A program made the translations under genes and the position numbers. DNA of 64,000 nt from assembly GCA_051884805.1 (NCBI GenBank), contig JBJEWA010000135.1, positions 7,464 through 71,463 of the forward strand, written 5' to 3'. Source of the stretch: Kiritimatiellia bacterium (GTDB lineage Bacteria > Verrucomicrobiota > Kiritimatiellia > RFP12 > UBA1067). Of this stretch, positions 5,957 through 24,697 are shown one piece after another. Below the pieces are notes generated by a model. The model ran no database searches, was not told where the DNA came from, and worked only from the letters and a program-made list of their open reading frames with translations. Every line of letters starts with the position of its first letter. The first letter of the stretch is position 1.

Positions 5957-6003
5957 CGCACAAACCTCCTCATGAGAACGACCGACTTCCAGATTACGTC
6001 CGG

Positions 6004-6012
6004 AGTATACCA
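6004..6012 (-). promoter_or_regulatory. extended -10 box TGgTATACT for the 5956->2220 operon
   Basis: The minus strand reads TGGTATACT, followed by a ~40-nt leader containing GAGGAGG before ATG 5956. Confidence 0.4.
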
Positions 6013-6067
6013 CAGATGAATATTTCATGAAATGTCATAACGCGAAGAAATTAGTCCTCAAATCCGT

Positions 6068-6096
6068 TTGCGCCGAAAAAGGACGTGTGCTATAAT
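6068..6096 (+). promoter_or_regulatory. sigma70-like promoter TTGCGC-N17-(TGc)TATAAT, 6 nt upstream of ATG 6103 (leaderless candidate)
   Basis: Read directly: the -35 is at 6068-6073 and the -10 at 6091-6096, preceded by TGc. Confidence 0.45.
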
Positions 6097-6102
6097 GGCG
6101 GC

Positions 6103-10513: not shown

Positions 10514-10521
10514 TGTGTGAG

Positions 10522-10530
10522 AGTATAGCA
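10522..10530 (-). promoter_or_regulatory. extended -10 box TGcTATACT, 8 nt upstream of ATG 10513 (leaderless candidate)
   Basis: The minus strand reads TGCTATACT-ctcacaca-ATG. Confidence 0.4.
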
Positions 10531-10696
10531 CAGCGGTGCGCAAACGAAAATGTTTTTATGCGAATTCACACATCCTCAATTCCGCCGGAGGCTGCCAAAC
10601 CCTCGAATCGCTCGGCCGCCGACGACCAAGGTTTCACCGTCACAGAAAAGGCGCCCGGTTTCCCGCCCGCCGATAACCAAGAACTACGGGGAGGGG

Positions 10697-10730
10697 AAAA
10701 AAAAAAATAAACTCGGAAACCTCCGAGTTT
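10697..10730 (-). terminator. rho-independent terminator of the tRNA unit
   Basis: The minus strand has a 9-bp stem AAACTCGGA / TCCGAGTTT with a 4-nt loop, followed by A-T11 (read on the minus strand as ATTTTTTTTTTT). Confidence 0.7.
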
Positions 10731-10740
10731 GATTCTGCAA

Positions 10741-10814
10741 TGGTTGACCCGCAGGGATTCGAACCCCAACAAGCAGAATCAGAATCTGCTGTGCTACCGT
10801 TACACCACGGGTCA
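10741..10814 (-). tRNA. tRNA-Gln (anticodon CTG), CCA encoded
   Basis: Hand-folded cloverleaf: acceptor TGACCCG/CGGGTCA, anticodon stem GCAGA/TCTGC with loop TTCTGAT, T-loop TTCGAAT, 3' ACCA. Confidence 0.8.
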
Positions 10815-10835
10815 ATCCCGTAATCCCTTTCAGAT

Positions 10836-10912
10836 TGGCGGGGTCGACGGGGCTCGAACCCGCAACCCCCGGATCGACAGTCCAGTGCGCTAACCAATTG
10901 CGCCACAACCCC
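10836..10912 (-). tRNA. tRNA-Asp (anticodon GTC), CCA encoded
   Basis: Hand-folded cloverleaf: acceptor GGGGTTG/CGACCCC, D-stem GCGC/GCGC, anticodon stem CTGGA/TCCGG with loop CTGTCGA, T-arm GCGGG-TTCGAGC-CCCGT, 3' GCCA. Confidence 0.88.
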
Positions 10913-10933
10913 GTTGCTCCGAAAAGTGAATGT

Positions 10934-10942
10934 AGTATATCA
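10934..10942 (-). promoter_or_regulatory. extended -10 box TGaTATACT upstream of tRNA-Asp
   Basis: The minus strand reads TTGCGG-N18-(TGa)TATACT, 21 nt before the tRNA 5' end. Confidence 0.45.
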
Positions 10943-11015
10943 TATTCTCCGCCGAGTCCGCAAGGGGGTATTTCATGTATGCGACAGGCGGGTTTTCAGC
11001 GGGCAAGGCTGCGCA

Positions 11016-11720
11016 TCAGGGGAGCTCCCGGATGCGGATGTTGCGCCAGCGGACGTCGCTGCCGTGCCCGCACCAGTGGATGCGCCCCGATTGGTTGTGC
11101 AGGCCCGGACGCTTGACGCCGTCCTCCCGGCCGTCCGTCGAATACTGCGAGACGTCGTCGTCCACGACGGTCGCGCCGTTCAGGACAACCGTGATCCGCG
11201 ACCCGTCCGCCGTCACTTCGACGTCGTTCCATTCGCCGGGCGGATTCAGGTAGCTCCGCCCGTTGGTGCGAAGCGCCGGTCCGACGACGCCGTAGATGGC
11301 GCCCGTGTAATGGACGTTCGTCAGCTTCTTCGCCCCGTTGTAGGCGTCGCCGTAGTCGTCCAGCAGCTGAATCTCCATGCCTTCGCGCGAACACCAACCG
11401 CCCGGCGCCGTCCGAAGCCCCAGCCCGTTGTTCGCATTCCGGGGCAGGACGACCGAGAACCGGATGACGAAGTTGGTGTAGTCGCGCACCGTCCAGAGGT
11501 TGCGCAACGCCATTGAACCTTCGCCGCTCGCCGCCATAACGGCCAGTTCGCCCTGCGCCGTCACGCAGTAGTTGTTCGTGCCGCCCTCCCAGCCCGCGAG
11601 GTCGCGTCCGTTGAAAAGCGGGACAAAGCCGTCCTCGGCATCCGTCGTCAGGCACTGGCAGCCGTTCAGCGCCGCCAGGCAGGCCGACGCCGCAATCATC
11701 ATGACCGTCATCTTGTGCAT
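11016..11720 (-). CDS. DUF1080 (3-keto-disaccharide hydrolase-like) lipoprotein
   Basis: Lipobox ...AALNGC, then FVPLFNGRDLAGWEG... and the C-terminal HWCGHGSDVRWRNIRIRELP typical of DUF1080. A GAGGAAAG SD precedes MHKM. Confidence 0.85.
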   Translation of the reverse strand: MHKMTVMMIAASACLAALNGCQCLTTDAEDGFVPLFNGRDLAGWEGGTNNYCVTAQGELAVMAASGEGSMALRNLWTVRDYTNFVIRFSVVLPRNANNGLGLRTAPGGWCSREGMEIQLLDDYGDAYNGAKKLTNVHYTGAIYGVVGPALRTNGRSYLNPPGEWNDVEVTADGSRITVVLNGATVVDDDVSQYSTDGREDGVKRPGLHNQSGRIHWCGHGSDVRWRNIRIRELP

Positions 11721-12886
11721 AGCTTCTTTCCTCGTTGGGGTTGAGCTGGCAAATCCGGGGGCGCGTTCTGATGGCACGCGGCGGCAAACGTCTCGCCGAC
11801 CACATAGCGCGGCGCCAGCACGATGCGGTCGCCGCCCTTTTTCCGTCCCCGGACCAGAATGTCCTCGACGAGGTCGGCAACCTTCTCCCCCTCCGCAGCG
11901 GCATCAAACGAAAACCGCGTCAACGGCAGGTGGAAGACCGGTCCCAGCCCCACGTTCTCCCACGCGACGACCTTGACGTCGTCCGGAATCCGCACCCCGT
12001 GGTGCATCAAGGCCATCAGCGCGGCGTCCGCGACATGGTCGTCGGTGAAGTAAAGGAGATCCGGCAGCCAGCCGCGGCCCCTCGCCAGCCGCTGCTCGAA
12101 CAAGGCGTTGGCCCGGCGCTTCACCGTCCCGACGACGCCTCGCTCCGGATCGTGCGGATCGACGGCCCATTCCACCACGGCGATCCCGGCCTCGCGCAAG
12201 GCCTGCGACATCGACGCAAACCGTCGGCTGCGCCCGCAGAACACGGTGATGACGCGCCGGACGCCAGCCTGGACGCAGTGGCGGACAAAGACGTCCGTCA
12301 GCGCCCGGTCGTCAAAGCGGACCTCCCAGTCTCCCTTGCCCGAGAACGTCGCCTCCGTGCAGATCTCGACCGTCGGAATCCGGTGCCGACACAGCCGTTC
12401 GACGGCCTCGGCGGGCGGCGTGGCCATGACGGCCAGGTCGTAGTCCTGACGGAGCGCGCTCATGAGCTGCGCCAGCCCCGCGCCGTCCCGCGACTGCCAG
12501 GCCGGAACCGGGAAGAACTGGTAGCCGATGCCGAACAGGCGCGCGCGCAGGATGTCGCCGAGGACGTTGTAGACGTAGTTCTCGCTGCGTCCGCTCGTCA
12601 CGTAAAGCACCCGGCCCTTCCAGCGCGTCGCGCCCCGCGCCGAGACGACGTTGCCAAAGCCCCGCCGGGGGATGAGCAGCCCCTCCTCCCCCAGCCGCCG
12701 CAGGGCGATCTTCGTGATGATTTCGCTCACGCCCAGCGTCGCCGCCAGCGGACGGATCCCCGGAACGGCGTCGCCCGGACGGTACAGGCCCGCATCGATC
12801 GCCCGGCGCAAGCCGTCCTCGACTTGCTCCGTCAGGCTCCTGCCGTCGTTGCGGTCAATGCGAAACGGGATGTGACGGCGACTCAT
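11708..12886 (-). CDS. GntR-type wHTH + LacI/PBP1-like sugar-binding-domain transcriptional regulator
   Basis: The N-terminal RSLTEQVEDGLRRAIDAGLYRPGDAVPGIRPLAATLGVSEIITKIALRRLGEEGLL is a GntR HTH. It has an ATGA overlap with the upstream gene. Confidence 0.8.
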   Translation of the reverse strand: MSRRHIPFRIDRNDGRSLTEQVEDGLRRAIDAGLYRPGDAVPGIRPLAATLGVSEIITKIALRRLGEEGLLIPRRGFGNVVSARGATRWKGRVLYVTSGRSENYVYNVLGDILRARLFGIGYQFFPVPAWQSRDGAGLAQLMSALRQDYDLAVMATPPAEAVERLCRHRIPTVEICTEATFSGKGDWEVRFDDRALTDVFVRHCVQAGVRRVITVFCGRSRRFASMSQALREAGIAVVEWAVDPHDPERGVVGTVKRRANALFEQRLARGRGWLPDLLYFTDDHVADAALMALMHHGVRIPDDVKVVAWENVGLGPVFHLPLTRFSFDAAAEGEKVADLVEDILVRGRKKGGDRIVLAPRYVVGETFAAACHQNAPPDLPAQPQRGKKLCTR

Positions 12887-14682
12887 CGCAGCAAGACCGG
12901 AACGATGCGGTCGCGGCCGAGCCTGACCGACTTGCGGACGCAAGCCGTGCCGACGCGCGCCTCGATCTCGACCGTCAGGGGGCGGTCGGAATATTCGCTG
13001 ACGAACGCCAGCGAACCCCGGGGCGAATCGATGCGCTTGACGACGGCGTTCCCCGACCGGCAGCGGATCTCCCCGCCCGGACGCGCCGTGGCGATGATGT
13101 CCTCGTAGGGCGCGAGCAGGTTGATCGCCTCGGCCATCGCCTGCATGTCCTTCGCGTCGAACGGGCACTCGCCCCAGAAGCCAAAGCCCTTGCCGCCGGC
13201 GGAAACGGTCTCCAGGATGTTCCACTTGAGCATCTCGGCGTTCAGGTCGCAGTCGAAGGCCCGCTGGAACGGATAGCCGGCGCAGAGGATCGGCGCGACC
13301 GGAATCTCCCCGCCCACGATGCGGTCGAGGACGTAGGTGTCGCGCCACGGCAGGAGCATGTCGTAGGGGTTGTAGTTGGCATAGACGTCCACGTAGACCA
13401 TGGGCGCAAGGATGTCGAAGACGCCCTTGAAATAGACCGGGTCTTCGAGCGTGCCGCGATAGGAGTGGGACTGCCGGTAGTCGCGGTGGCCGGAAAAGCC
13501 GGCAAAGGACCGGTGATAGGCGTTGTAGATCATGAAGCGGAAGCGCCGTCCGTCGCCCTTCGCGCGCAAGTGGCCCTCCATGGCCTCGCGATACTCGCGG
13601 AAGAAATCGGCGTAGCGTCTGGCCGCGAAGTCGAAGCGGTCGCCGGACGGATGCGCCTGGCAATAGCGGGCGAACTCCGCCTTGCAGCGTTCGCAGTAGC
13701 AGATGGCCTCGCCGTTTTCGACGCCCGGCAGCAGGGTCTCCCCGTACATCTCCGGATCGACCGTATGGAAGCAGAGCCCCCGGTCGAGCAACGCCTTCCC
13801 CTGCTCGATCCACCGGCGGAAGTGCTCGCCGCGATAGGAGAGGCACAGGGCGGCGCGCGTCTTCTGCCCGTTCCTGAGCGTCGCCGCGCCCTCCTCGCTC
13901 TCACGCCCCCTGGTCCACCACCATTCGCGCACCCAGGCGATCGGATCAAGCCCGGGAATCTCCCGGCACTTGGCGATCGTCGCGTCGATCAGCGGCCACC
14001 CCCAGTCGTCCCCGGGCTCCACGTAGGTCCACATGTCGAGCAGGTTGAAGCCGCAGCGCTTCAGGCCGGCCAGGTCCGGATAGGTCGCGAAGAAATCGCT
14101 GGGCATCGAGAAGTAGGCCGGCAGGCGGCGGAACCCCTTCGCCTCGGGAACGCGCACGACCTCGACCGGCAGCGTCTTCGCCTCCTGCCGCTGCGCTCCG
14201 CCGTCCCACTCGCCCCAGTAGCGGACGGAGAACCGGGCGCCTTCGGGCATCGGCTTGCGGAGCCTCCAGTAGAACGTGTACTTGTCGGCGCGCGGCCCGG
14301 GAACGAAATGATAGACGTTGCCCTTGCGCTTCATCGTGAAATCCCTGAAGCCGCCGCAGAATTCGACGGACTCCGGCACTTCCACGAACAGCTGCGGACC
14401 CTTCGAGGCGTTGATCGGCTTGAAGTGGACGGTCGAGACCACGTCCGGGGACACGTAGGCCGTCTGCTCGATGTTGGACGTGAAGGCGAACCCCGACTTC
14501 TTGCGCGGCAAATACAGCAGCTTCTGGCTCGTCGTCAGCGCCGGGCGCGTCATGACGGCCCCCGGAGGGATCTCCGGGTTCCAGGCCACCGGGAAGGACA
14601 GCATGTCCTCCGGCGTCACCGCCGGGGCGACGCCGCACCACAGCGCCGCCGCCACCGCCGCCAGCCGCGCGCCTCCGGGCAT
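12883..14682 (-). CDS. 599-aa secreted protein of unknown function (glycosidase-like; contains CYCERCKAEF motif); ends ...IVPVLLR
   Basis: Start MPGGARLAAVAAALWCG (signal peptide). TGATG overlap with the upstream gene and strong coding bias. Confidence 0.65.
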   Translation of the reverse strand: MPGGARLAAVAAALWCGVAPAVTPEDMLSFPVAWNPEIPPGAVMTRPALTTSQKLLYLPRKKSGFAFTSNIEQTAYVSPDVVSTVHFKPINASKGPQLFVEVPESVEFCGGFRDFTMKRKGNVYHFVPGPRADKYTFYWRLRKPMPEGARFSVRYWGEWDGGAQRQEAKTLPVEVVRVPEAKGFRRLPAYFSMPSDFFATYPDLAGLKRCGFNLLDMWTYVEPGDDWGWPLIDATIAKCREIPGLDPIAWVREWWWTRGRESEEGAATLRNGQKTRAALCLSYRGEHFRRWIEQGKALLDRGLCFHTVDPEMYGETLLPGVENGEAICYCERCKAEFARYCQAHPSGDRFDFAARRYADFFREYREAMEGHLRAKGDGRRFRFMIYNAYHRSFAGFSGHRDYRQSHSYRGTLEDPVYFKGVFDILAPMVYVDVYANYNPYDMLLPWRDTYVLDRIVGGEIPVAPILCAGYPFQRAFDCDLNAEMLKWNILETVSAGGKGFGFWGECPFDAKDMQAMAEAINLLAPYEDIIATARPGGEIRCRSGNAVVKRIDSPRGSLAFVSEYSDRPLTVEIEARVGTACVRKSVRLGRDRIVPVLLR

Positions 14683-15311
14683 CACCTGACCTCCCGCACG
14701 TTCGTCACCTTCGGCGCCGCGCCCTCGAACTCGACCTCGATCAGCAGCTTGCCGCGGCCGGCGGGAGCGGAGACGGCGGCCGGCGCGTCCGCCGCGCCCT
14801 CCGGCACGCCTTCGTAGATCCGGAGGTTGTCGACGAACACCGTCGCGTTGCAGCGGAACATCGCCAGCATCGTCTGCCCCCGGTTCGCGCCGGCGGGACA
14901 GGTGAACGTCGCCCGGGCCTGATGCCACCGGCCGTCGCAGGGCACCAGGTCGCGAATGGGCCGCGAGAAGGTGCCGACGGTGGCGTTGCCGGCGCCCTTG
15001 AAGTTCACCGCGAAGGTGATGCGGGGGATCGGCGCCTTGTCGGCCTTGACGTCGAAGACGGCCGTGTAGGTCTTGCCCGGCTGGTAGGCCTGCCAGACGT
15101 AGGCGCAGAAGTTGTTGTCCGGCGTGAAGACAATCGAGGTCTTCCCCTCGGTCTTCTCCTCGTCGTCCAGCTCGATCGTGCAGTCGCCCGGCCAGGCCTG
15201 GATCTCCTTCTCGCTCTCGAACGGAATGACCTTCAGCAGCCGGGCTTCGCCGACCGCGACACCCGCCGTCATCAGGACGCCGACGGCAACAATCTTCTTC
15301 GTCAGAAACAT
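14682..15311 (-). CDS. secreted beta-sandwich / carbohydrate-binding-module-like protein
   Basis: Start MFLTKKIVAVGVLMTAGVAVGEA (signal peptide). About 200 aa with a strand-rich pattern. The family call is weak. Confidence 0.5.
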   Translation of the reverse strand: MFLTKKIVAVGVLMTAGVAVGEARLLKVIPFESEKEIQAWPGDCTIELDDEEKTEGKTSIVFTPDNNFCAYVWQAYQPGKTYTAVFDVKADKAPIPRITFAVNFKGAGNATVGTFSRPIRDLVPCDGRWHQARATFTCPAGANRGQTMLAMFRCNATVFVDNLRIYEGVPEGAADAPAAVSAPAGRGKLLIEVEFEGAAPKVTNVREVR

Positions 15312-15313
15312 CG

Positions 15314-16672
15314 TCACTCTCCTTTCAGGGTCAGGCACATCCGGAAGCCGCGACCGCAGGCCCCGGCGGTGCCATACGTCGCCGTGGCCGCGCTCCGCAG
15401 CCCGTAGCGGAGGTCAGTCGTGTCCCAAGCCCCGCCGCGGATGACCTTCGAGTTGATATTGGAGCCGTCCATGCCCCGCGGATCGACCTCCGGCGTCTCC
15501 TGCGTATTCTCCGGATAGCTCGTGTAGAAGTCAAGGCACCACTCCCCGACGTTCCCGATCATGTCGTAAAGCCCCCAGGCGTTCGGCGCGTAGCTGCCCA
15601 CCCGCGACGTCCCCTGCTCCGTCGTCGTCACCGCCGCACCGGCCGTCACGCCGTCGCCGGCCCCGCTGTTCATGTAATACCGGGCGATCGATTCGAGCGA
15701 CGGATCCGCCGCGACAAACGAATAGGCGATGCCGTCGAGCGCAACGCTCTCCGGCGCAATCTCGGCTCCGCAGGGCAACGCCGTTCCCGCGCCGGCCCGG
15801 CAGGCGAACTCCCATTGGGCCGAGGTCGGCAAGTCGAGGTAAAGGCCCAGGCCGCACAGCGCGCGCAGCTTGTAGACGAAGGTCGTCTCCGTCGTGACTG
15901 CATGCCCCGAAGCCTCGTCTTCGCCCGGCCAGTTGTTGTCGCGGATGCCCTTGTTGTACGCGCCGGACTCGATGAAATAGACCTTGTCGACCGGACGCGT
16001 CCCCCAGACCGACTCGTCCCCGCCCGTAAACTGCGAATGGTTCAGATTCGACCCGTAGACCAGCGCCCACTGCTTTTGGGTGCACTCGAAGACGCCGAGG
16101 TAGTAGTTGCACGTCAGCTTCACCCAATGCCGCCGTTCGTAGCCGCCCGACGTATTCCGCCCGACCTCGCCGTCAGGCGAGCCGCGCTGCCAGAGCACGT
16201 CCTTCGCCGGAATCTTCCGGAAGAGCATCTCCGTCGTCCGCCAGCGATCGGATCCGATCGGCTCGGGCAGGGCCGCCACCGACGGATAATAGCGGACCGT
16301 GTTCGAATTCTGCAGATCGACGGCCATGTAGTCCGGACCGTTGTTCGTCGGCCAGGCCGACACGGACACCCGGAGATCCGCAATCCGGAACTTCCGCTCG
16401 GCCAGGGACTTGCGCAGTTCCCAGACCACCGCATGCGTCCCCGCCGGCGTCAGCCGGTTGCCGCCGTCGGTCAGCGCGGCCATCGCCTCGCCCGTCAGCG
16501 GCTCGCCGGCGAGGGAGCCGGCCAGCGTCACGATCGCCGGCGCGTCGAGCGTGTAGCCGACCGTCAGGGCGCAGGCCTCGGCGTCATAAGCCAGCGTCAC
16601 GTCTGAAACCGTCGCCGCTGCGACCGGCAGGACGGAACCCAGGGCGGCAAGAACAACGATTGCAACCTTCAT
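15314..16672 (-). CDS. FGE/SUMF1 (formylglycine-generating-enzyme) domain protein with N-terminal Ig-like domain
   Basis: YYLGVFECTQKQWALVYG..., YAPNAWGLYDMIGNVGEWCLD, VIRGGAW...GFRMC match the FGE-sulfatase domain signature. Signal peptide present. Confidence 0.85.
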   Translation of the reverse strand: MKVAIVVLAALGSVLPVAAATVSDVTLAYDAEACALTVGYTLDAPAIVTLAGSLAGEPLTGEAMAALTDGGNRLTPAGTHAVVWELRKSLAERKFRIADLRVSVSAWPTNNGPDYMAVDLQNSNTVRYYPSVAALPEPIGSDRWRTTEMLFRKIPAKDVLWQRGSPDGEVGRNTSGGYERRHWVKLTCNYYLGVFECTQKQWALVYGSNLNHSQFTGGDESVWGTRPVDKVYFIESGAYNKGIRDNNWPGEDEASGHAVTTETTFVYKLRALCGLGLYLDLPTSAQWEFACRAGAGTALPCGAEIAPESVALDGIAYSFVAADPSLESIARYYMNSGAGDGVTAGAAVTTTEQGTSRVGSYAPNAWGLYDMIGNVGEWCLDFYTSYPENTQETPEVDPRGMDGSNINSKVIRGGAWDTTDLRYGLRSAATATYGTAGACGRGFRMCLTLKGE

Positions 16673-16681
16673 GCTACCTCC

Positions 16682-18184
16682 TCAGTCTGCGACCGTCAGC
16701 GCCAGGCGAAAGCCCTGGGACCCCGTGCCGCCCGCGGCCAGCGGATTTACCGACGTCTCGAACTTCGCCGCCGCATGCGCCGAACTCCGGCAGGCGACTT
16801 TCGCACTGCTCGACCGCCAGCTGCCGCCGGCCGCAACATGGCAGTTGTACGCCCCCGCACCGACGCTTTCCGCATTCCCCGAATACCCGACCGGGCCGCG
16901 CTCGTCCACCGTCGGCGTGTCCTCCGTGTTGGCGGCGAACGTTCCCCAATAGTCGAGGCAGAGTTCCGCCACGTTGCCGTACATGTCGTAAAGCCCCCAG
17001 GCGTTCGGCGCATAGCTGCCCACCCGCGCCGTCGCCAGCGCGCCGGTCGCGTCGGTCAAGTCGGGCGCAGCCGCCCCGCTGTTCGCGTAGTAGCGCGCAA
17101 TTCCCTCCAGCGCGGACTGCGCCTGCGTCAGGTCGTCGCTCGCCAGCTCCTCCCCGGTGTACAGCGCCGTCTCCGTCCCCGCCCGCGCGGCGTATTCCCA
17201 CTGCGAGTAGGTCGGCAGGTCCAGGTAGTCGCCAAGGCCGGTACGGGCGCGGAACTGGTAGATGAACGACGATTCGAGCGTGACCGCGTGGCCGGCCGCC
17301 TCGCTCTCGCCCGGCCAGGTGTCGGGGTCGCGCAGATGATGCTTCTGGGCGGCGTTCGCCGGATTGCCCCAATGCGTGAAGTGGACGTTCTCCACCGGTC
17401 GCGTCCCCCAGACCGACTCGTCGCCCTGCGAAACGGAGGACGGATTCGAGCCGAAGACGAGACTGTACTGCTTCTGCGTCACCTCGAAGACGCCGAGGTA
17501 GTAGTCGTGCGAGAACTTGACGTAGTGCACCAGCTCGGAATTGTCGCGCCGGCCGACCTGCCCGGCCGGCGCCCCGAGCTTCGCCGTCTTGCCAAAGGCC
17601 TGGATCTTGCGAAAGACCATCTTCGTGGTGCGATAGACGTCCGACCCGATGCCGCCGGGCAGTTCGGATTCCGCCGTATAGTAGGTGACGTTGGCGCCGG
17701 GCTCGGCCTCAAGATCGACGACCATGTACAGCGGATGCTTCAGCAGGCGCTGGCGCTCCGCCTCGGCGGCGGCCTCGGCGGCCATGCGCTCCCAGAACTC
17801 CGTGTTCGCCGCCCAGTGTTCCGCATTCGTCGGCCAGACGGTCAGGACGGCACGCGCCCCTTTCGTCTTGTGTTCGGGCCATGAGGCCCGCGCATCCCAG
17901 ACCAGGCGGTTCACGCCCGCGCTCATGACCAGCGTTCCGGCGTGCCCGACGAGGTTGGTGAAGTTCTCGGCGCCGATCGAGACCCAGCCCGGATCCGCCT
18001 GGTCCAGCGACCGGTTGGCGTTGGTCTGAATATCGACCGTCAGGATCACGGGCGCCTCCGACAACCGGTATTCGATCGTCGTGACGCGACGACCGTTCTG
18101 GCTCATCGTCACCTCCGACACCTCCGGCACGGCGAGCGCGGCGAACGACGACAGGATCGTCAGCAAGGGCAACAGGCGTTTCAT
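16682..18184 (-). CDS. FGE/SUMF1 domain protein, tandem paralog of 15314..16672
   Basis: Same motifs as its neighbour (YYLGVFEVTQKQYSLVFG, YAPNAWGLYDMYGNVAELCLD, GGSW...GFRL). Signal peptide MKRLLPLLTILSSFAALA. Confidence 0.85.
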   Translation of the reverse strand: MKRLLPLLTILSSFAALAVPEVSEVTMSQNGRRVTTIEYRLSEAPVILTVDIQTNANRSLDQADPGWVSIGAENFTNLVGHAGTLVMSAGVNRLVWDARASWPEHKTKGARAVLTVWPTNAEHWAANTEFWERMAAEAAAEAERQRLLKHPLYMVVDLEAEPGANVTYYTAESELPGGIGSDVYRTTKMVFRKIQAFGKTAKLGAPAGQVGRRDNSELVHYVKFSHDYYLGVFEVTQKQYSLVFGSNPSSVSQGDESVWGTRPVENVHFTHWGNPANAAQKHHLRDPDTWPGESEAAGHAVTLESSFIYQFRARTGLGDYLDLPTYSQWEYAARAGTETALYTGEELASDDLTQAQSALEGIARYYANSGAAAPDLTDATGALATARVGSYAPNAWGLYDMYGNVAELCLDYWGTFAANTEDTPTVDERGPVGYSGNAESVGAGAYNCHVAAGGSWRSSSAKVACRSSAHAAAKFETSVNPLAAGGTGSQGFRLALTVAD

Positions 18185-18197
18185 GGCAGCGGCTCCT

Positions 18198-18488
18198 TCA
18201 ACGTACGAGAATCACAAGTCCGCGATTCAATGTCGTGGCGAAGTCGCCGACGACGTTTGAAAACGCCCGGCTGAACGTTCGCAGATCCAACGTGCCGTCG
18301 GCGCCCTCGCCCGTGGCGGCGGCGGACTCAACCGTTGACACCTCGACGCCGACATGGCCGGAGGCATCCCAGAAACCGTCGGCCGCATCGGCCGGCAGAT
18401 ACGGACTCATGTCATTCCAGACAAACGACGCAACCGCCGTTGCCGACAACAGCATCATCGCCGCCAGAAGCATCCCCAGTCTTCGCAT
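18198..18488 (-). CDS. 96-aa secreted protein; C-terminus ends GLVILVR
   Basis: Start MRRLGMLLAAMMLLSATAVA, preceded by a GGAAAGGAGGGA SD. First gene of the 18488->11016 string. Confidence 0.55.
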   Translation of the reverse strand: MRRLGMLLAAMMLLSATAVASFVWNDMSPYLPADAADGFWDASGHVGVEVSTVESAAATGEGADGTLDLRTFSRAFSNVVGDFATTLNRGLVILVR

Positions 18489-18552
18489 CAACCGCCGTCC
18501 CTCCTTTCCGAAACCGCGCACCGCACGCGGCGCATTCCTCGCATTGCCCGCC

Positions 18553-18581
18553 ATTATACCATTTATACTCACCTCGCACAA
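18553..18581 (-). promoter_or_regulatory. sigma70-like promoter TTGTGC-N17-(TGg)TATAAT for the 7-gene string
   Basis: Read on the minus strand: -35 at 18581-18576 and -10 at 18558-18553. Confidence 0.45.
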
Positions 18582-18593
18582 GGGGTCCCCTTC

Positions 18594-18644
18594 CAAAAGA
18601 CAGCAGCCCTGCTCGCGGGCGTGACGGTCTTTTACGCGGGCTGC
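18594..18644 (-). terminator. possible terminator downstream of the Fic gene
   Basis: Minus-strand stem GCAGCCC...GGGCTGC with inner pairing, followed by TGTCTTTTGG. The hairpin is imperfect. Confidence 0.35.
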
Positions 18645-18716
18645 CGGGGCGCAGCCGGGGAATCAGCCTCCTGACTGCGGAAGTCGCGACGATACGCGAT
18701 GTCAAAGGGATGACAT

Positions 18717-19655
18717 TCACTCATTCCCGCCCAATGCCTCCGTCAAAACCGAAAGTCGCGCAGCTTCCGCCTCAACGAAGATACGAATCATCGGCACGGC
18801 ATTGGCATCCCGGTGATAGACGGTGAACGCATCATAGTAAGCGACTCGATTTTCATATTTGATGCTGATCGGAAGATATCCAGCGCGCATAAGGATGAAG
18901 TTGGCGAGAAGACGTCCCGTTCGACCGTTCCCGTCAATGAACGGATGGATTGCCTCAAAACTGATATGGAAAAGCGCAGCCGCCACGAGCGGATGAAGGT
19001 GTGTTGCGTTCAGATCGCGCACCCAGCCTTCCATTTGCGGCACAACGAGATAAGGTTGCGGCGGCGTATGCGCCGCGCCCGTAATGACCACCGGCATCCG
19101 GCGATACACCCCGCGGTCCTGCGGCTGGTCGGCCAACACGAGCGCATGCAGTTCCTTGACCAGACGCTCGCTCATCGCCTCGCCTCGACCGACCACTTCC
19201 GCCAGGAAGTTAAAGGCATCACGATGGCCAATGGCCTCCAGGTGATCCTTGAGCGGCTTCTGGCCGATGGTCACGCCCGCCAGGACGAGCGCGGTCTCAT
19301 TCAGTGTGAGCGTATTACCCTCAATGGCCGTCGAGTTATGGGTGTAGTCAACCATGAACGACTCTTGCCAGCGCTGCTTCTCACTCGGCGTGAGCGGACG
19401 CCGCCTCGACAACAACTCCTTCAGGGAATCGACCTTCAGCACCAATCCCATCAACTCCTTCGGGATTCCACCATAGCGCAACGAGCGCCCATCTACCGGG
19501 CGCGGACAATCGGAAGGAATGCGCCAATGCTTGCCTGCCAGTATTGCCCCCGCAATCTTTCCTTCCACGCACAACATCCGTACGCGGCGCGCTGAAATCT
19601 GCCATCTTTCAGCCGTTTCCCTAACAGAAACCAACTTTTCACCGATTGTTCCCAC
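18717..19655 (-). CDS. Fic-family AMPylase (class II, intramolecular inhibitory helix) with N-terminal excisionase/MerR-like HTH
   Basis: The Fic motif HPFIDGNGRTGR and the inhibitory motif STAIEGN ([ST]xxxE[GN]) lie upstream in the same chain. The N-terminus VSVRETAERWQISARRVRMLCVEGKI is an HTH. GTG start. Confidence 0.9.
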   Translation of the reverse strand: MGTIGEKLVSVRETAERWQISARRVRMLCVEGKIAGAILAGKHWRIPSDCPRPVDGRSLRYGGIPKELMGLVLKVDSLKELLSRRRPLTPSEKQRWQESFMVDYTHNSTAIEGNTLTLNETALVLAGVTIGQKPLKDHLEAIGHRDAFNFLAEVVGRGEAMSERLVKELHALVLADQPQDRGVYRRMPVVITGAAHTPPQPYLVVPQMEGWVRDLNATHLHPLVAAALFHISFEAIHPFIDGNGRTGRLLANFILMRAGYLPISIKYENRVAYYDAFTVYHRDANAVPMIRIFVEAEAARLSVLTEALGGNE

Positions 19656-19661
19656 GCGGAT

Positions 19662-19670
19662 AGTATAACA
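19662..19670 (-). promoter_or_regulatory. extended -10 box TGtTATACT, 6 nt upstream of the Fic GTG
   Basis: The minus strand reads TGTTATACT-atccgc-GTG(19655). Confidence 0.35.
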
Positions 19671-19867
19671 CAGTATCGGAAGGATAGCAACGGCAAAAAA
19701 TGAATATTCGCCTAACTATACTTCCGTTTCCAGAATGAAAGATACGGATGACGTGTGTTCAGTCCCATTCTCAACCAGACCAGACTTCGCCATGAGAAGC
19801 CAATCCTCAAATGCGGTTGTTTTGCTCGCGATCACACAACATTAGGCATGTAATTTGGATAGTCGAT

Positions 19868-19896
19868 TTGCATTGAGACGCAACACTTGCTATACT
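19868..19896 (+). promoter_or_regulatory. sigma70-like promoter TTGCAT-N17-(TGc)TATACT for the HTH/nuclease/methylase string
   Basis: Read directly. The ORF-track start at 19887 lies inside this promoter. Confidence 0.45.
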
Positions 19897-19931
19897 TCGC
19901 TTCGGAAACTAACGAAAGAACCATACAATGG

Positions 19932-20294
19932 TTGCCCGCTATAAAATTTTGGAAACTGCTGACAGACAAGGACATGACGAAAACCGGATTGCGCATGACA
20001 TCTGGCCTATCCTCTTCGACTATTGCAAGAATGGCGCGAGGTGGTTACATAAGGGCATCCGTCCTCGTGCGTCTCTGCGAAGTCCTCGGCTGTGGCATCA
20101 ACGAAATCTTCCAGACTCTCCCAGCCACCCAGTGCGCGACGCCAGACAACAGTCGTGAGAGTTGCGCCCACGTACCGAACAAGAAGCGGAAATTACGAGA
20201 CAGGTCAACGCGACAGGGAACATTATGGCACAGAAAGACCAAGTTGTTGCCGCACTGCAGAAGTGTGGTGGGTATGCCACGTTTTCCGAGCTGA
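19932..20294 (+). CDS. small XRE/Cro-type HTH protein (possible controller protein)
   Basis: IKFWKLLTDKDMTKTGLRMTSGLSSSTIARMARGGYIRASVLVRLCEVLGCGINEIFQ fits a YozG/Cro-like HTH. A TTG start is assumed. A basic ~60-aa tail overlaps the next gene by 70 nt, so the 3' end is uncertain. Confidence 0.5.
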   Translation: MPAIKFWKLLTDKDMTKTGLRMTSGLSSSTIARMARGGYIRASVLVRLCEVLGCGINEIFQTLPATQCATPDNSRESCAHVPNKKRKLRDRSTRQGTLWHRKTKLLPHCRSVVGMPRFPS

Positions 20295-20923
20295 ACCACC
20301 TTGTCGACTCCTCGTCGTGGGGTACTAAAACGGTAGCTGCGACCATCCGGCGGATCGTCCAACAAGATCCAAAGTTGTTTTATCGCATTATTCCGGGACA
20401 GTGGGGCTTGGTTTCGATGCGCAAATTCATCGAAAGCCAAGGTGCTACCGAGAGATCAGAGAGCTACACGCATGGGTATTATCAAGGACTTTTGGTTGAG
20501 CTTGGAAATGCCTGCCACTTCAAAACCTACGTTCCGCCACAAGACAAAAATCGTCCGTATGCACACAAAAGACTGTCCGACATCATTTCCCTTCCGGTGA
20601 TTTATGACTTCACTCACCAAAAAATCTTGCGCAAGGCCAAGACTGTCGATACGATTTGGTTTAACAGCCGAGAGATGCCAACCGCATTTTTTGAAGTCGA
20701 ACACACGACAGATATACAGAACTCTCTTGATAAATTCTACGAATTACAAGACTTCAATGCCAGATTCACCATCGTATCGGCAAGAAAGAATCGCGCTCGG
20801 TTTGATGACCTCCTGAGCTATTCCCGTTATGATTCCATTCGCAAGATGGTTTCGTTTTACGATTATGACAAGCTTGTCAAACTTCACGACTTGAAAATGG
20901 CCGAACTTGAAGTGGCGATGTGA
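20225..20923 (+). CDS. HARE-HTH-like N-terminal domain + restriction-endonuclease-like (D...EVE) C-terminal domain protein
   Basis: The N-terminus VVAALQKCGGYATFSELNHLV...IRRIVQQDPKLFYRIIPGQWGL resembles HARE-HTH. The C-terminus HGYYQGLLVELG...TVDTIWF...AFFEVEHTTDIQNSLDKF resembles a nuclease core. Call rests on pattern recall only. Confidence 0.55.
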   Translation: MAQKDQVVAALQKCGGYATFSELNHLVDSSSWGTKTVAATIRRIVQQDPKLFYRIIPGQWGLVSMRKFIESQGATERSESYTHGYYQGLLVELGNACHFKTYVPPQDKNRPYAHKRLSDIISLPVIYDFTHQKILRKAKTVDTIWFNSREMPTAFFEVEHTTDIQNSLDKFYELQDFNARFTIVSARKNRARFDDLLSYSRYDSIRKMVSFYDYDKLVKLHDLKMAELEVAM

Positions 20924-20941
20924 GATCTGATCAATGATAAA

Positions 20942-22087
20942 ATGGAGCAACCGATGTATTCTGATTCGTCAACAACAGCTTTCCATAACAGCAGTGATAT
21001 GCGGAGGCGCGATTTCTGCAAGGGCGTGGCGGCCACTGCCGTCTCACCAATACTACCACTACAAAGTGTTGGAGAGGAATCAGTACCGATTAGTACAGTT
21101 GGGCGCAACCGGGCAAAAACTGCCGTAGCAGATATTGACCACTTTGAGAAAGGTGATGTTCATTTATATTGCGGCAACAGCTTATCATTTTACGAAAAAT
21201 GGGCGGCTCCAACGGTAATCGTCTCCGATGGAGCATATGGGATTTTGGGATTCGAAGGTGACACATTCGATCACACCGGAGTTCCCGAATGGTATCGTGC
21301 ACACATTGAACAGTGGTCAAAGTTTGCACGGCCAAATACGACGCTTTGGTTTTGGAACTCCGAAATTGGTTGGGCGGCCGCGCATCCAGTTTTAGAAGCA
21401 AACGGATGGCGCTATCAAAACTGCAACATCTGGGATAAGGGATTAGCCCACATTGCCGGCAATGTCAATACCACTAAAATTAGACGTTTCCCGGTTGTCT
21501 CAGAGGTTTGCGTTCAATACGTACGAGAAAATAGAATCAATGGCGACCCGCTGAAGGTTTGGCTTAAAAAAGAATGGCAAAGAACGGGGTTGCCATTACG
21601 ATGCGCAAATGAAGCATGTGGCGTCAAGGACGCGGCAGTACGCAAATATCTTGACCAAGGGCATTTGTGGTATTTTCCACCAGCAGACATGTTTGAACGC
21701 TTGTCTTCCTTTGCCAATGAACGCGGCGAAAAATCCGGCAGACCTTATTTCTCATTAGATGGTAAACGACCCTTGACCGGTGATCAATGGTCTTTGATGC
21801 GCGCAAAATTTCATTGTCCGCATGGTTTTACCAATGTATGGAACCGTCCGCCAATCAGCGGCAAGGAACGCATAAAAAATGAAAACAACAAGGCACTTCA
21901 TCTAAATCAAAAGCCTCTCGACCTGATGGAAATGATTATCAAGGCTTCATCAGACGAGGGCGACGTGGTGTGGGAGCCGTTTGGTGGTTTGTTCTCAGCT
22001 TCACGGGCCGCAATTAACTTGAAGCGGAAAGCGTACGGCGGAGAGATAAACCCCTATTATTTTAATGCTGCCATATCCCGTTTTTGA
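20942..22087 (+). CDS. beta-class N6A/N4C DNA methyltransferase (PF01555-like) with an atypical motif IV
   Basis: The C-terminal HLNQKPLDLMEMIIKASSDEGDVVWEPFGGLFSASRAA is the AdoMet motif I region. Motif IV reads VIVSDGAYG in place of DPPY/SPPY. The true start may be downstream of 20942. Confidence 0.8.
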   Translation: MEQPMYSDSSTTAFHNSSDMRRRDFCKGVAATAVSPILPLQSVGEESVPISTVGRNRAKTAVADIDHFEKGDVHLYCGNSLSFYEKWAAPTVIVSDGAYGILGFEGDTFDHTGVPEWYRAHIEQWSKFARPNTTLWFWNSEIGWAAAHPVLEANGWRYQNCNIWDKGLAHIAGNVNTTKIRRFPVVSEVCVQYVRENRINGDPLKVWLKKEWQRTGLPLRCANEACGVKDAAVRKYLDQGHLWYFPPADMFERLSSFANERGEKSGRPYFSLDGKRPLTGDQWSLMRAKFHCPHGFTNVWNRPPISGKERIKNENNKALHLNQKPLDLMEMIIKASSDEGDVVWEPFGGLFSASRAAINLKRKAYGGEINPYYFNAAISRF

Positions 22088-22322
22088 TGTCTCAATCATC
22101 GTCAACACCGTACGGAGACATGAATGACCTAATCTAATTCCATTACCGCAGATCAACTGATCTGAACGCAAATCACTCTTGAAAACTACGACAAAAAAGA
22201 GCTACATGGGATTTGCAAGGCAATCCTCTTTGGATACGCCTTGTCATGTGTTTGTAGCGGCTGTCGTAGGCCTTCAAGGCATGTGGCAAGGCGTATCCTT
22301 TCCAATCACGAAGGGATACATT

Positions 22323-23201
22323 ATGGGTACACGTGAAATTCTTGAGTCTGCCAAAGAACACCTTTACGCTCTTAGGGGAGAGGTCTTTGATGTTTTGACT
22401 ATCACCCAGCCGACTTCCGTCGATGAAATTAGAAACCTCGCCAAGATCGTTTCAAAACTATCCCCGCTCATAGGCAACCTCATCGAGTTCAAAATAACCG
22501 AATTTTTAAATTCGAAGTTGAATAGTGACGACGGGAAATGGAAGCGACAAGACCCCGGGTTTCCCGATGTGATTTTTGACGGAAATCTCACCCCTGCTCC
22601 GGGTTTTGAAATAAAAGCTTGGTTCCCGTTTGCAACAGAAATCACCGGGCGATTCAAAGATTCAGAGGAGAGATTCAAAAATGACGAAGTTGATCTCGTA
22701 ATTCTGGCTTGGTTACCAGAGCATATCTTCTGGGGTAAACCTCGTATTATCGACGTCTGTGTCGTTTCTGGCAAATCTGTTGCCATTGCAAGAGATCTGC
22801 ATTATCACAAACCTCCTCACTATTTGGTTATTGAGCCAGAAAACACCTCGGATAGGACAGCAAACCTACAGCAGACAAACACAAACGGCTATGTGATACA
22901 AGACTCATCCGAGGCGGGATTAAAAGCGGCGAAGGCGATTGTTAAGTCATGGGGAAAGAATGGGGCCTGTTATAGCACATCGAAGCTGTACCAAGATAGG
23001 CTAAAAGGTCTAATGGGCAAGGTAGAATACCGTCTTGATACGAACTACGCAAAAATTGATCGTATTGAACATAAAGGCATAGAAGAATTCAAGCGCACGG
23101 TACTTGGGCGCGAGCTTGGCGGCGAAACTATCAAGTCATGGGGTTCCATAATCACCGATCTCCCACCCGACGTAGCAAAATCACTTTTGAATATTCAGTA
23201 A
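22323..23201 (+). CDS. PD-(D/E)xK nuclease, candidate type II restriction endonuclease
   Basis: GFPDVIFDGNLTPAPGFEIKAW gives PD...(13)...EIK. Start set at MGTREIL with a GAAGGGA SD. It lies immediately downstream of the methyltransferase. Confidence 0.6.
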   Translation: MGTREILESAKEHLYALRGEVFDVLTITQPTSVDEIRNLAKIVSKLSPLIGNLIEFKITEFLNSKLNSDDGKWKRQDPGFPDVIFDGNLTPAPGFEIKAWFPFATEITGRFKDSEERFKNDEVDLVILAWLPEHIFWGKPRIIDVCVVSGKSVAIARDLHYHKPPHYLVIEPENTSDRTANLQQTNTNGYVIQDSSEAGLKAAKAIVKSWGKNGACYSTSKLYQDRLKGLMGKVEYRLDTNYAKIDRIEHKGIEEFKRTVLGRELGGETIKSWGSIITDLPPDVAKSLLNIQ

Positions 23202-23402
23202 CTTGCTATGAGCGTCGAATCGTAAGTTGTCTTGGATTCAAGGAAAATTACCGGCGAAACGACACATTATGGAGCTTCATTCCCAGATATTGCACCTTAA
23301 AGCCGATAATGCCTCCAACAGACACAACACTTTATTGACGATTTCATATCGAGTGGGCTGCATGAGACGCTAATGCGGCGATAAACCGCCGACTCCTTTC
23401 TT

Positions 23403-24344
23403 ATGCTCATGCTCAAAGGCTGGATAGCCGCCGCTTTTACGCTCATTGTTTGGGGCGTCACATTCGTCAACACGCGCATGCTGCTGAGCGAGTTTTCCGC
23501 GCTCGAAATCCAGCTGCTGCGTTTTGCGCTGGCGTGGGGGACGTTGGCGCTCATCGGTTGGACGCGACGCAAGCGCTGCGGCTGGCAAGGACGCCGCGAA
23601 GCGCTGTTCGCCGCGATGGGACTGACCGGGGTTTTCGTCTATCAGTTTCTGGAGAACTGCGCCATCTACTACACCAACGCCAGCAATGTCGCCATTCTCG
23701 TTTCCTTCGGGCCGATCGTGACCGCGCTCATGGCGCGGCTCGCCCTCAATGACCGTTCACTGTCCCTTCGTCTTGTCCTCGGCTCACTCGTTTCAATCGC
23801 TGGCGTGGCACTCGTGGCGGTAAACGGCGTAGTCAACTTTCATCTGCGTCCGCTGGGGGATTTGATGGCGCTCGGCGCAATGGTCAGCTGGGGCGCGTAT
23901 TCGATTCTCATTGGCAAGGTCAACGCGCTGGACGTTCCGCCGCTCGTCGCCGCCCGTAAGTCCTTCGGATGGGCGCTGGCAATCATGCTGCCGTTGGCGA
24001 TATGGGGCGCGACCGAAAGCGGATATGTCGCTTTGGACGGCTCGTATTCGGTGACGCTGGATCTCGCCGCGAACGCGGAAAGGTTCCGTTCACCCGGAAA
24101 CGGACTAAACCTGCTCTTTCTCGGCATTCTTGCCTCGGCGGTCTGTTTCGTCCTCTGGAATATCGCCTGCAAAGCGCTCGGTGTCGTCCGCACGACCGTT
24201 TGCCTTTATCTGATTCCCGTCATTGGCGTTCTCTTCGCCTATTTCTGCTTGCACGAGCCGATTACATGGATGTCCGCCGCTGGCGGCGTCCTGATTCTCG
24301 TCGGCGTTGTCACCGCCACCATGAAGAGAGGCGTTCACAAATGA
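23403..24344 (+). CDS. DMT-superfamily (EamA) transporter
   Basis: About 10 TM segments arranged as a duplicated EamA pattern (…FLENCAIYYTNASNVAILVSFGPI… / …FVLWNIACKALGVVRTTVCLYLIPVIG…). Confidence 0.85.
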   Translation: MLMLKGWIAAAFTLIVWGVTFVNTRMLLSEFSALEIQLLRFALAWGTLALIGWTRRKRCGWQGRREALFAAMGLTGVFVYQFLENCAIYYTNASNVAILVSFGPIVTALMARLALNDRSLSLRLVLGSLVSIAGVALVAVNGVVNFHLRPLGDLMALGAMVSWGAYSILIGKVNALDVPPLVAARKSFGWALAIMLPLAIWGATESGYVALDGSYSVTLDLAANAERFRSPGNGLNLLFLGILASAVCFVLWNIACKALGVVRTTVCLYLIPVIGVLFAYFCLHEPITWMSAAGGVLILVGVVTATMKRGVHK

Positions 24345-24697
24345 GAATATCCGTTTTTCTCCTGACCATCGGATTAACCTCCCTTGTAGGCGCAGAACCG
24401 ACAGCGCCCACAATAGCCACAAACGCCATTGGAAGCGTCTGCACAAGCCGGCAATGCAATTCCGTGACCAAATCAGGGAATCGCTGTAAACGCAAGGCAG
24501 CTCCCTATCAGCTATATTGTAGACAACATGCCGCAGCCACAGCTGTCAAACCTCCCCCACCGTCATGCTGCTATCTGGACGATGCCGATATGCGATGCAA
24601 AACCAAAGCGCGTGACGGCAAGAGGTATTGCACCCAGCATCTGACCCCAGCCACCATGATAGAACCGCCGCCCACCGCCAAACCGCCGGCAAAATGA
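24341..24697 (+). CDS. 118-aa secreted Cys/His-rich protein with a duplicated C..RCK..YCxQH motif
   Basis: ATGA overlap with the EamA stop. Signal peptide MRISVFLLTIGLTSLVGA. Repeats are CTSRQCNSVTKSGNRCKRKAAPYQLYCRQH and CCYLDDADMRCKTKARDGKRYCTQH, followed by Pro-rich linkers. Confidence 0.55.
   Translation: MRISVFLLTIGLTSLVGAEPTAPTIATNAIGSVCTSRQCNSVTKSGNRCKRKAAPYQLYCRQHAAATAVKPPPPSCCYLDDADMRCKTKARDGKRYCTQHLTPATMIEPPPTAKPPAK

Follow-up and report, generated by a model that had tools for sequence, protein, structure and literature searches.

The subject of this analysis is a four-gene cassette within a 64,000-nucleotide stretch (hereafter, the window) of a contig from a Kiritimatiellia metagenome-assembled genome. 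Inside a low-GC island at 19.7–23.3 kb (45–48% GC compared to ~66% for the contig), four open reading frames (ORFs) run in one direction and encode, in order, a helix-turn-helix (HTH) protein, a two-domain nuclease-like protein that we call G2, a DNA methyltransferase, MT3, and a restriction endonuclease, RE4 (Table 1). We consider it likely that independent modules make up this cassette, as a mosaic at a defence hot spot that precedes an EamA-family transporter gene, and that it is not one four-gene system: MT3 and RE4 would be an orthodox type II restriction–modification (RM) pair equipped with a leader RNA, and G2 an independent nuclease, presumably of a type IV-like kind. A preliminary description of this DNA had read the four genes as one non-canonical system, built around a heterodimeric restriction enzyme or constituting a new defence system. 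Its account of the parts stands: all four co-directional genes are present, the long tail of the HTH gene does overlap the next gene by 70 nt (20225–20294), and its domain calls, namely a HARE-HTH with a nuclease-like core for G2, a beta-class methyltransferase and a PD..EIK nuclease, agree with Pfam and PADLOC. Its account of the whole is not supported: MT3 and RE4 recur without G2, G2 occurs in 99 further loci without RE4, and a search of 5.8 billion proteins returned no relative of the HTH protein but itself.

The independence of the modules can be seen from both sides. Our census comprised 100 non-identical G2 loci, the window included, drawn from GTDB genomes and metagenomes, and in none of the 99 others was RE4 present. 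RE4 in turn has 3270 homologues across phyla, and at all of the ~8 distinct RE4 loci examined its homologue adjoins a homologue of MT3 (60–88% identical in L006–L008, L149 and L151–L156, L numbers being our handles for loci). Such pairs stand without G2 in Nevskiales-like, Terasakiella, Aeromonas plasmid and metagenome loci (L006–L010, L149, L151–L156), G2 being absent from all other RE4 loci within the flanking DNA examined. The edges of homology point the same way. Kiritimatiellia-like relatives carry a G2 that is 66–81% identical to that of the window, and the stretch over which the window is homologous to the nearest G2 loci begins precisely with the ATG of G2 and stops at its stop codon; the HTH region upstream of the ATG has no homology to other G2 loci. 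Across the hot spot (L011–L016, L094, L144 and the window) the RM module varies from locus to locus, whereas G2 and EamA are found throughout, often with a zinc-finger gene kept too.

Could the four genes nevertheless form one system, in which G2 and RE4 are two subunits or co-operating nucleases, protected by MT3 and controlled by the HTH protein? The genes are co-directional and tightly packed, with the overlap of 70 nt at one junction and a gap of only 18 nt between the G2 stop codon and MT3, the island has a single low-GC composition, and a promoter-like string lies upstream, all of which would suit such an arrangement. However, none of the 99 other G2 loci and none of the ~8 distinct RE4 loci examined has the combination, protein searches found exact copies of the products of genes 1, 2 and 4 on this one contig only, the homology to G2 relatives is confined to the span from ATG to stop, and RE4 has a conserved leader RNA of its own. 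As for a heterodimeric enzyme of the BbvCI, Bpu10I or BslI type, G2 and RE4 are never together elsewhere and their folds are unrelated. We therefore give a single integrated system next to no probability. Another suggestion of the preliminary description, that a methylation-dependent or DNA-sensing effector has joined an RM system, comes close to the reading that the evidence supports, the modification dependence of G2 being the part that we infer.

MT3 and RE4 appear, from their sequences and their repeated association, to be a complete, widespread and orthodox type II RM pair, and it is only for these two genes that a catalogued RM subtype was found. RE4 matches PADLOC REase_II PDLC03583 across 261 residues; in the family alignment of its motif GFPD..GFEIKAW, P81-D82 and E96-x-K98 are invariant and I97 is conserved at ≥90%. 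In the PDB, sequence searches with the single sequence and with a profile gave nothing meaningful, and fold searches with the AlphaFold2 model (predicted local distance difference test, pLDDT, 89.8) returned weak matches with only type IIP enzymes at the top (HincII, NlaIV, SwaI, SfiI), the first 34 all being HincII, NlaIV or SwaI. MT3 has the motif order of the beta class, with FGGLFS (motif I) and HLNQKP, and possibly starts at ATG 20954; its motif IV reads SDGAYG in place of DPPY, a variant kept among four aligned family members. We note in passing that across this family (MT3 residues 93–100; homologues in L006–L008) SDG(A/G)YG stands where the beta class has (D/S/N)PP(Y/F), so that both motif IV prolines are replaced in what are nonetheless conserved partners of an active-looking restriction endonuclease. 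A role for MT3 as a GATC methylase was considered and is unsupported; only its S-adenosylmethionine-binding C-terminus resembles DpnA. The methylase and nuclease genes are convergent in L006–L010 and co-directional, methylase first, in L151–L156; the pair on the Aeromonas plasmid pAV7K, also convergent, comes with a classical overlapping C protein.

In operation, MT3 would methylate the target site of the pair and RE4 would cut that site when unmethylated. The most depleted 6-bp palindromes in the 58.8 kb of host DNA in the window (1–19600 and 24801–64000) are GTCGAC (24 observed, 55 expected) and CTCGAG (5 observed, 26 expected); CTAG is nearly absent (4 compared to 51 expected), and GATC is about at expectation (338 compared to 367). 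Because the fold of RE4 resembles that of HincII (GTYRAC), a GTCGAC-type specificity is a hint and no more, the depletion being too weak to assign the site.

Conservation of the 235-nt spacer that separates MT3 from RE4 exceeds that of the genes on either side, the spacer being ~93% identical between the window and L151 at a synonymous divergence (dS) of RE4 of about 1.95. Consensus folding of the leader RNA in this spacer by RNAalifold gives a 5′ hairpin with the loop GAAAACUACGACAA, a 22-bp hairpin with the apical sequence GGCUGUCGUAGGCC, and a 3′ hairpin in which CCUUUC is paired to the Shine-Dalgarno sequence of RE4. Over four distinct sequences, 98% of the cells in the 42 pairs are paired, and compensatory change is present at 9 pairs, compared to 3.4 ± 1.3 in shuffles (0/500) and 0–1 in slid controls; the minimum free energy has a z-score of −5.0. 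Of 11 copies, 9 allow 7–8 contiguous Watson–Crick pairs between the loop of the first hairpin and the apical loop of the second, and since this complementarity is kept by three different sequence versions (CTACGACA/TGTCGTAG, CTACCAC/GTGGTAG and CGACCAAA/TTTGGTCG), the two loops constitute a covarying kissing loop. Rfam 15 (4227 families) contains no match to the leader; a scan of 19500–23500 at E ≤ 1 gave one spurious long non-coding RNA elsewhere. In the public annotation RE4 is a 340-aa protein starting from TTG 22179 (22179–23201), the extension being translated leader RNA, and in L154–L156 gene callers have put an 82-aa ORF across the leader; the RE4 homologues begin at ATG 22323. An upstream ORF or an N-terminal extension of RE4 was rejected as the source of the conservation, given a frame-shifting indel and many non-synonymous changes in L153 and a stop codon in L152, and so was an integron attC-like site, which would need R′/R″ core sequences, absent here, and another position with respect to the genes.

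A covariance model found further copies of the leader at the same hot spot (Table 1), and the leader accompanies RE4 into unrelated flanks in L152 and L153. The copy in L012 (68 bits with the first model, 124 bits with the second) has a TGnTATACT box before it and ends in a perfect intrinsic terminator just 5′ of the gene for a 489-aa HNH-like protein, which is convergent with the gene for an 827-aa type II methylase. Weaker full-length copies (17–27 bits) occupy a fixed position upstream of Dam in Dam-DpnII-DpnA-G2 operons. Searches of viral contigs (with two patterns) and of plasmids found no copy. The two expression platforms, together with the fixed sense orientation and many G-U pairs, argue for a cis-regulatory leader RNA of restriction genes, probably one not previously described that limits the amount of the RE4 enzyme. 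It would throttle or condition RE4 translation through the 3′ hairpin on the Shine-Dalgarno sequence, and would do the job of the C proteins found in other versions of the MT3/RE4 pair.

Let us consider instead that the element acts at the level of DNA: it could mark a junction of recombination or insertion, bind a protein, or be a repeat of this lineage that stayed behind at cassette borders. Its location at or near the cassette-exchange junctions of the hot spot, and the origin of all copies in related rumen and gut Kiritimatiellia-like contigs, would be consistent with such a role. However, on the opposite strand the numerous G-U pairs would turn into C-A mismatches, and a score of only 14–22 bits is reached in that orientation; a DNA element would also be hard to reconcile with compensatory changes in five helices and a covarying loop–loop pairing, with the fixed orientation and spacing to the downstream start codon, with two classical expression platforms (an anti-Shine-Dalgarno hairpin and an intrinsic terminator), or with its moving together with RE4 into unrelated flanks. 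We thus regard a DNA-level feature as quite unlikely, and return to the leader as an RNA. A bolder proposal, which we put forward only tentatively, is that the leader founds a riboswitch-like class of RNA, gating restriction nucleases and RM operons by translation or transcription in response to a cellular signal, plausibly S-adenosylmethionine/S-adenosylhomocysteine or methylation capacity, and that G2 at the same time founds a HARE-HTH/NmeDI_C type IV family.

The G2 family is large: clustering at 90% identity gives about 4000 clusters, and clustering at 50% gives 1140. Its C-terminus is the Pfam domain NmeDI_C (PF27126; precomputed annotation, present on all 120 relatives listed), and G2 and its family match PADLOC REase_II PDLC03534 weakly (1.2e-5 to 1e-8), over profile positions ~169–325 of 351. 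The HARE-HTH domain, in the N-terminal third of the protein, was found in 24 of 40 family members with a best E of 5.6e-6, and the same 40 gave no match to Mrr_cat or Mrr_N. Residues D142, E157-V-E159-H160 and K170 are invariant across the family ("EVE" here meaning the residues Glu-Val-Glu, not the EVE domain), and a putative recognition helix, W-TKTP-AS-IRRIVQ, is kept in all contexts. The window G2 retains every invariant residue and shows a non-synonymous divergence of 0.15–0.27 from its nearest relatives at saturated dS; it is intact and under purifying selection. Its AlphaFold2 model (pLDDT 92.8) gave weak Foldseek matches to winged-helix proteins and to nuclease folds of the YaeQ/Can2/Mus81 type, and none to DpnI, Mrr or BamHI. 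Relatives of the NmeDI_C domain occur in other fusions as well, with an EVE domain, with sigma-70 r2/r4 regions, or as a methylase fragment joined to a full-length G2 (P0370, 325 aa; P0321, 360 aa; P0318, 354 aa).

The neighbourhoods of G2 are strikingly varied. About 46 of the 100 loci have GATC-type genes (Dam, DpnII or DpnA), in orders such as Dam-DpnII-DpnA-G2-DpnD-EamA and G2-Dam-DpnA-X-EamA, Dam-G2-DpnD-DpnA on Firmicutes conjugative elements, and carB-G2-DpnD-DpnII-DpnA in Campylobacter. Another 20 lie inside type I operons with the order Fic-HsdM-HsdS-(integrase-HsdS′)-G2-HsdR (assignments confirmed with Pfam), and three are paired with AlwI-family (GGATC) enzymes. The preliminary description had counted the occurrence of G2 apart from RM genes among the findings that would tell against its reading, and this is in part what we see: 30 loci have no recognised partner, with 4 methylases among 86 nearest neighbours and the rest mostly housekeeping genes (guaA, rplM/rpsI, secA, pckA). 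In about half of the loci G2 is thus solitary or sits in a type I operon of variable specificity, and in about 46% it is linked to a GATC methylase. A gene of the DpnD/PcfM family follows G2 in 36 of the 100 loci and is absent from its type I contexts; a literature search on DpnD found only unrelated chemistry papers. A solitary 427-aa version of G2 is carried by Listeria and Enterococcus plasmids, and no phage homologue of G2 was found.

Two of these neighbourhoods deserve a remark of their own. In many Campylobacter loci (concisus, showae, gracilis), tblastn shows the DpnII gene downstream of G2-DpnD split into three pieces, the middle piece of ~170–320 bp being on the opposite strand (L035, L039, L045, L050, L054, L055, L061, L062, L065, L070, L072 and L074–L077; for example L050 8931–9725), and intact in L059 (8904–9650), L060 and L069; judged from these sequences, the middle piece may be invertible, and its inversion could make restriction phase-variable. 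In the order G2-Dam-DpnA-X-EamA, which is that of the G2 genes closest to the one in the window, X (L144 2476–3831, + strand) encodes 451 aa, is rich in Cys at the C-terminus and matches nothing in Pfam or PADLOC, and because it occupies the slot expected for a GATC endonuclease it may be an undescribed restriction endonuclease.

What does G2 do? NmeDI, a type II enzyme of Neisseria meningitidis recognizing RCCGGY, cuts on either side of its site, 12/7 nt beyond it (PMC2095814), so that in NmeDI_C cleavage forms a module apart from recognition. Fusions of HARE-HTH with restriction endonuclease domains beside modification systems have been predicted to be modification discriminators (PMC10853773, PMC12839542), and TgvAB is a type IV system within a Vibrio type I RM cluster (PMC11411939). 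It is because of this published prediction, the EVE-fused relative and the presence of type IV systems within type I clusters that we favour a type IV-like reading, in which G2 is an RM-type-independent nuclease that probably discriminates modification. From its neighbours we would expect G2 to tolerate the N6-methyladenine (m6A) marks of Dam, of type I enzymes with changing specificity and of AlwI-like enzymes, in which case it is neither a general m6A-dependent nuclease nor a Gm6ATC-dependent one. G2 would bind DNA by its HARE-HTH/winged-helix reader and then cleave nearby via NmeDI_C, discriminating a modification state not made by the m6A and N4-methylcytosine methylases of its own host; it would in this way be a type IV-like complement to the RM pair, whichever RM type adjoins.

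The main rival to this reading is that G2 is a conventional methylation-sensitive endonuclease of GATC, or of a site containing it, with a Dam- or DpnA-type cognate methylase; in the window, the linked Dam cassette would have been replaced by MT3/RE4, and G2 would be protected by an unlinked Dam or silenced, perhaps by the HTH protein. The ~46 loci with Dam, DpnA or DpnII speak for this, as do the three pairings with AlwI-family enzymes and the Firmicutes order Dam-G2-DpnD-DpnA, which has a 4-bp overlap and no other nuclease, so that G2 fills the slot of the restriction enzyme. The namesake of its domain, NmeDI, is moreover a true type II enzyme, and the D..ExE motif of G2 resembles the BamHI type. 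On the other hand, G2 would be redundant beside the complete DpnII of Kiritimatiellia and Campylobacter loci, 20 loci are in type I operons with shuffling HsdS, and many more are among housekeeping genes with no methylase within two genes. The window G2 is under purifying selection although there is no Dam gene in the 64 kb, and GATC is not depleted in the host DNA, as the counts given earlier indicate. On balance a GATC endonuclease seems to us unlikely.

A second alternative follows the logic of PrrC and RloC, which are embedded in type I RM loci: G2 might be a latent second-line effector that DpnD or adjacent RM or methylase proteins restrain, and that is freed when a phage disables restriction. 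In 20 loci G2 lies between hsdS and hsdR, the very slot occupied by PrrC in EcoprrI; among loci with recognised partners it stands beside modification-based systems of various kinds, and the small DpnD gene is often translationally coupled to it. A survey of BREX, moreover, lists HARE-HTH–endonuclease fusions among "backup effectors". Yet many G2 genes are solitary, DpnD is found neither in the type I contexts nor in the window, and a DNA-binding reader domain suits direct recognition of DNA better than release from a guard. An RM-guarded effector is therefore, in our view, improbable, and a modification-discriminating nuclease remains the reading we prefer for G2.

Several observations weigh against the interpretation given here, either of the mosaic as a whole or of its parts. 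The link of G2 to GATC methylases, seen in five gene orders and four phyla and with 4-bp start/stop overlaps of G2 with Dam in L003–L005, is too frequent and too tight for coincidence, and could mean that the activity of G2 is tied to GATC methylation; the DpnD partner of so many G2 genes is not present in the window. The HARE-HTH match of the window G2 itself is weak (E 0.011, below the Pfam threshold), and sequence, profile and fold searches of the PDB gave no solved structure close to G2. The tight layout of the cassette shows co-expression, with which functional coupling is compatible, and on the RE4 side the closest relatives offer little flanking DNA (40 bp in L151, 334 bp in L152). For the leader, the evidence consists of about 8 distinct sequences from one bacterial lineage, the later alignments having been fitted to the model, and five of the copies score only 17–27 bits.

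The HTH gene at the front of the operon, whose ORF bounds are 19887/19932–20294 with an NCBI start at TTG 19932, ends in a basic tail of ~55 aa after the HTH domain, and it is this tail that overlaps G2. Judging from its sequence it is an orphan specific to this lineage, fused to the operon at its front end and not part of the conserved G2 module; it possibly acts as an operon repressor. A role as C protein for RE4 was rejected, since it shows no similarity to the real C protein of pAV7K, and an inverted-repeat search upstream of it found only trivial repeats and no persuasive C-box-like repeated operator. The promoter proposed in the preliminary description is present as a string and is a plausible promoter, while matches of its kind in the region do not exceed the shuffled background (6 compared to 5.1 ± 1.8); nor did the scan for terminators in the region exceed chance.

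The surroundings of the cassette are those of a defence island. The Fic gene on one side is divergent and outside the cassette. Genes related to it stand first in type I RM operons holding G2 (L044, L067, L106, L107, L113 and others, 3–7 kb upstream of G2), so that Fic and G2 recur in the same islands. On the other side, after EamA, the window has a gene for a small secreted-looking protein with CxxC-rich DUF5763/WRC/zf-C3Hc3H-like repeats (~24345–24697, + strand), which is present at every version of the hot spot (L144 4791–5114, L152 2624–3013, L012 7610–7924) and in L152 directly follows RE4.

Table 1. Features of the cassette and its surroundings in the window, and copies of the leader RNA at other loci.
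Feature	Position	Strand	Basis or remark
Fic-family protein, N-terminal HTH_17	18717..19655	-	Pfam Fic 2.7e-22; PADLOC PDC-S04 8.3e-39, SoFic 6.6e-36
Sigma-70-like promoter string TTGCAT-N17-(TG)TATACT	19868..19896	+	Direct sequence reading
Orphan Cro/C1-type HTH, 120 aa	19932..20294	+	Pfam HTH_26 2e-11; VanU-like
G2, N-terminal HARE-HTH/winged helix and C-terminal NmeDI_C nuclease, 232 aa	20225..20923	+	PF27126, PADLOC, HARE-HTH
MT3, beta-class N6/N4 DNA methyltransferase	20942..22087	+	N6_N4_Mtase 1.9e-19; 60–88% identical to methylases paired with RE4 homologues
Small hairpin CAGATCA-AC-TGATCTG, just upstream of leader	22150..22165	+	Hairpin of unrelated sequence in the same place in L151, L152, L153
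Structured leader RNA, ~155 nt	22168..22322	+	Conservation, covariation, no Rfam match
Leader 5′ hairpin	22168-22216	+	Loop CUACGAC at 22186-22192
Leader long hairpin	22232-22298	+	Apical GUCGUAG at 22263-22269
Leader 3′ hairpin	CCUUUC 22297-22302 with GAAGGG Shine-Dalgarno 22310-22315	+	RE4 ribosome-binding site paired
RE4, type II PD-(D/E)XK restriction endonuclease, 292 aa	22323..23201	+	PADLOC REase_II PDLC03583 1.6e-46
Terminator-like hairpin and T-run after RE4	23376..23401	+	Consensus match only
EamA-family transporter, syntenic anchor	23403..24344	+	57–67% identical to EamA after G2(-DpnD) in L012–L016, L096–L104, L144
Leader copies	L151 1258-1412; L152 1487-1633; L153 1699-1853		Before RE4
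Leader copy	L012 4953-4784	-	Before HNH-like gene; E 4e-13
Leader copy	L094 120-310		Upstream of G2
Leader copies	L011 282-444; L013 458-619; L101 2742-2905; L102 98-259; L015 468-632		Conserved structured RNA

Once split into its modules the cassette is ordinary, and the reading of two nucleases around one methylase is corrected. Its interest, which we judge moderate, comes from how large the G2 family is and how strikingly its neighbourhoods are patterned, and most of all from the leader RNA. G2 appears to belong to an uncharacterised, previously predicted class of reader–nuclease fusions, large and systematically placed beside type I, DpnII-like, AlwI-like and now MT3/RE4 systems; defining its substrate would add a family of restriction enzymes and might explain the long-obscure dpnD gene. 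The leader, with its structure and kissing loop, precedes three unrelated nuclease genes and Dam-DpnII operons. We know of no RNA-based control of restriction enzyme expression, and the leader, if a sensor, would be the first. It would then be an RNA answer to the old problem of restriction outrunning methylation, and the timing of restriction relative to methylation would become directly testable in systems without C proteins.

Among known systems, R.NmeDI is the one that shares its C-terminal nuclease domain with G2, the length of profile PDLC03534, 351, being that of NmeDI. The similarity is weak (E 1e-5 to 1e-8), G2 has 232 aa, and a HARE-HTH/winged-helix N-terminus replaces the N-terminal recognition domain of NmeDI. 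NmeDI has Vsr as a partner, and its methylase is a C5 enzyme, in contrast to the amino-methyltransferases, or none, that accompany G2. Mrr is a winged-helix reader followed by a PD-(D/E)XK nuclease. Like G2, the type IV systems Mrr, of the immigration control region of E. coli, and TgvAB lie beside or inside type I RM operons, and the logic suggested for them is complementary, modified DNA being left to them and unmodified DNA to the RM system (PMC11411939). They differ from G2 in that G2 has no match to Mrr domains, TgvAB is GmrSD-like and of another fold, and modification dependence in the case of G2 is presumed. The two-domain architecture of G2 is also that of the HARE-HTH and restriction endonuclease fusions predicted by Aravind and co-workers (PMC10853773, PMC12839542), which lie beside modification systems as well; those are found with Dnd (phosphorothioate) and BREX systems, G2 with type II (MT3/RE4, DpnII, AlwI-like) and type I systems, the comparison being one of architecture and neighbourhoods.

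The pneumococcal DpnI cassette (dpnC-dpnD) resembles the G2-DpnD arrangement in that DpnD follows the nuclease, and G2 is linked to DpnM-, DpnA- and DpnII-like genes besides. DpnI too combines a PD-(D/E)XK nuclease with a winged helix, in the reverse domain order, and no similarity of G2 to it was found in sequence or fold. The DpnI and DpnII cassettes of Streptococcus pneumoniae are mutually exclusive, whereas G2-DpnD coexists with Dam methylases, and G2 would therefore not be Gm6ATC-dependent; the window, unlike these cassettes, has neither DpnD nor any GATC gene. RM systems with C proteins, such as the RE4 homologue of the Aeromonas veronii plasmid pAV7K, likewise have an HTH gene that overlaps the start of the nuclease gene at the head of the operon, but the HTH protein of the window is HTH_26/VanU-like, overlaps G2 and not RE4, and has no homologues. 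The leader, finally, is to be compared to riboswitches and other 5′ leader RNAs. It differs from them in having no Rfam match, in being known from ~8 distinct copies of one lineage and in having a ligand that is only conjectured, and to our knowledge restriction genes are no known riboswitch regulon. With them it shares a conserved multi-helix architecture that includes a loop–loop contact and lies directly 5′ of the ORF it would regulate, and the two kinds of expression platform used by riboswitches, the hairpin that sequesters the Shine-Dalgarno sequence and the intrinsic terminator, are both seen among its copies.

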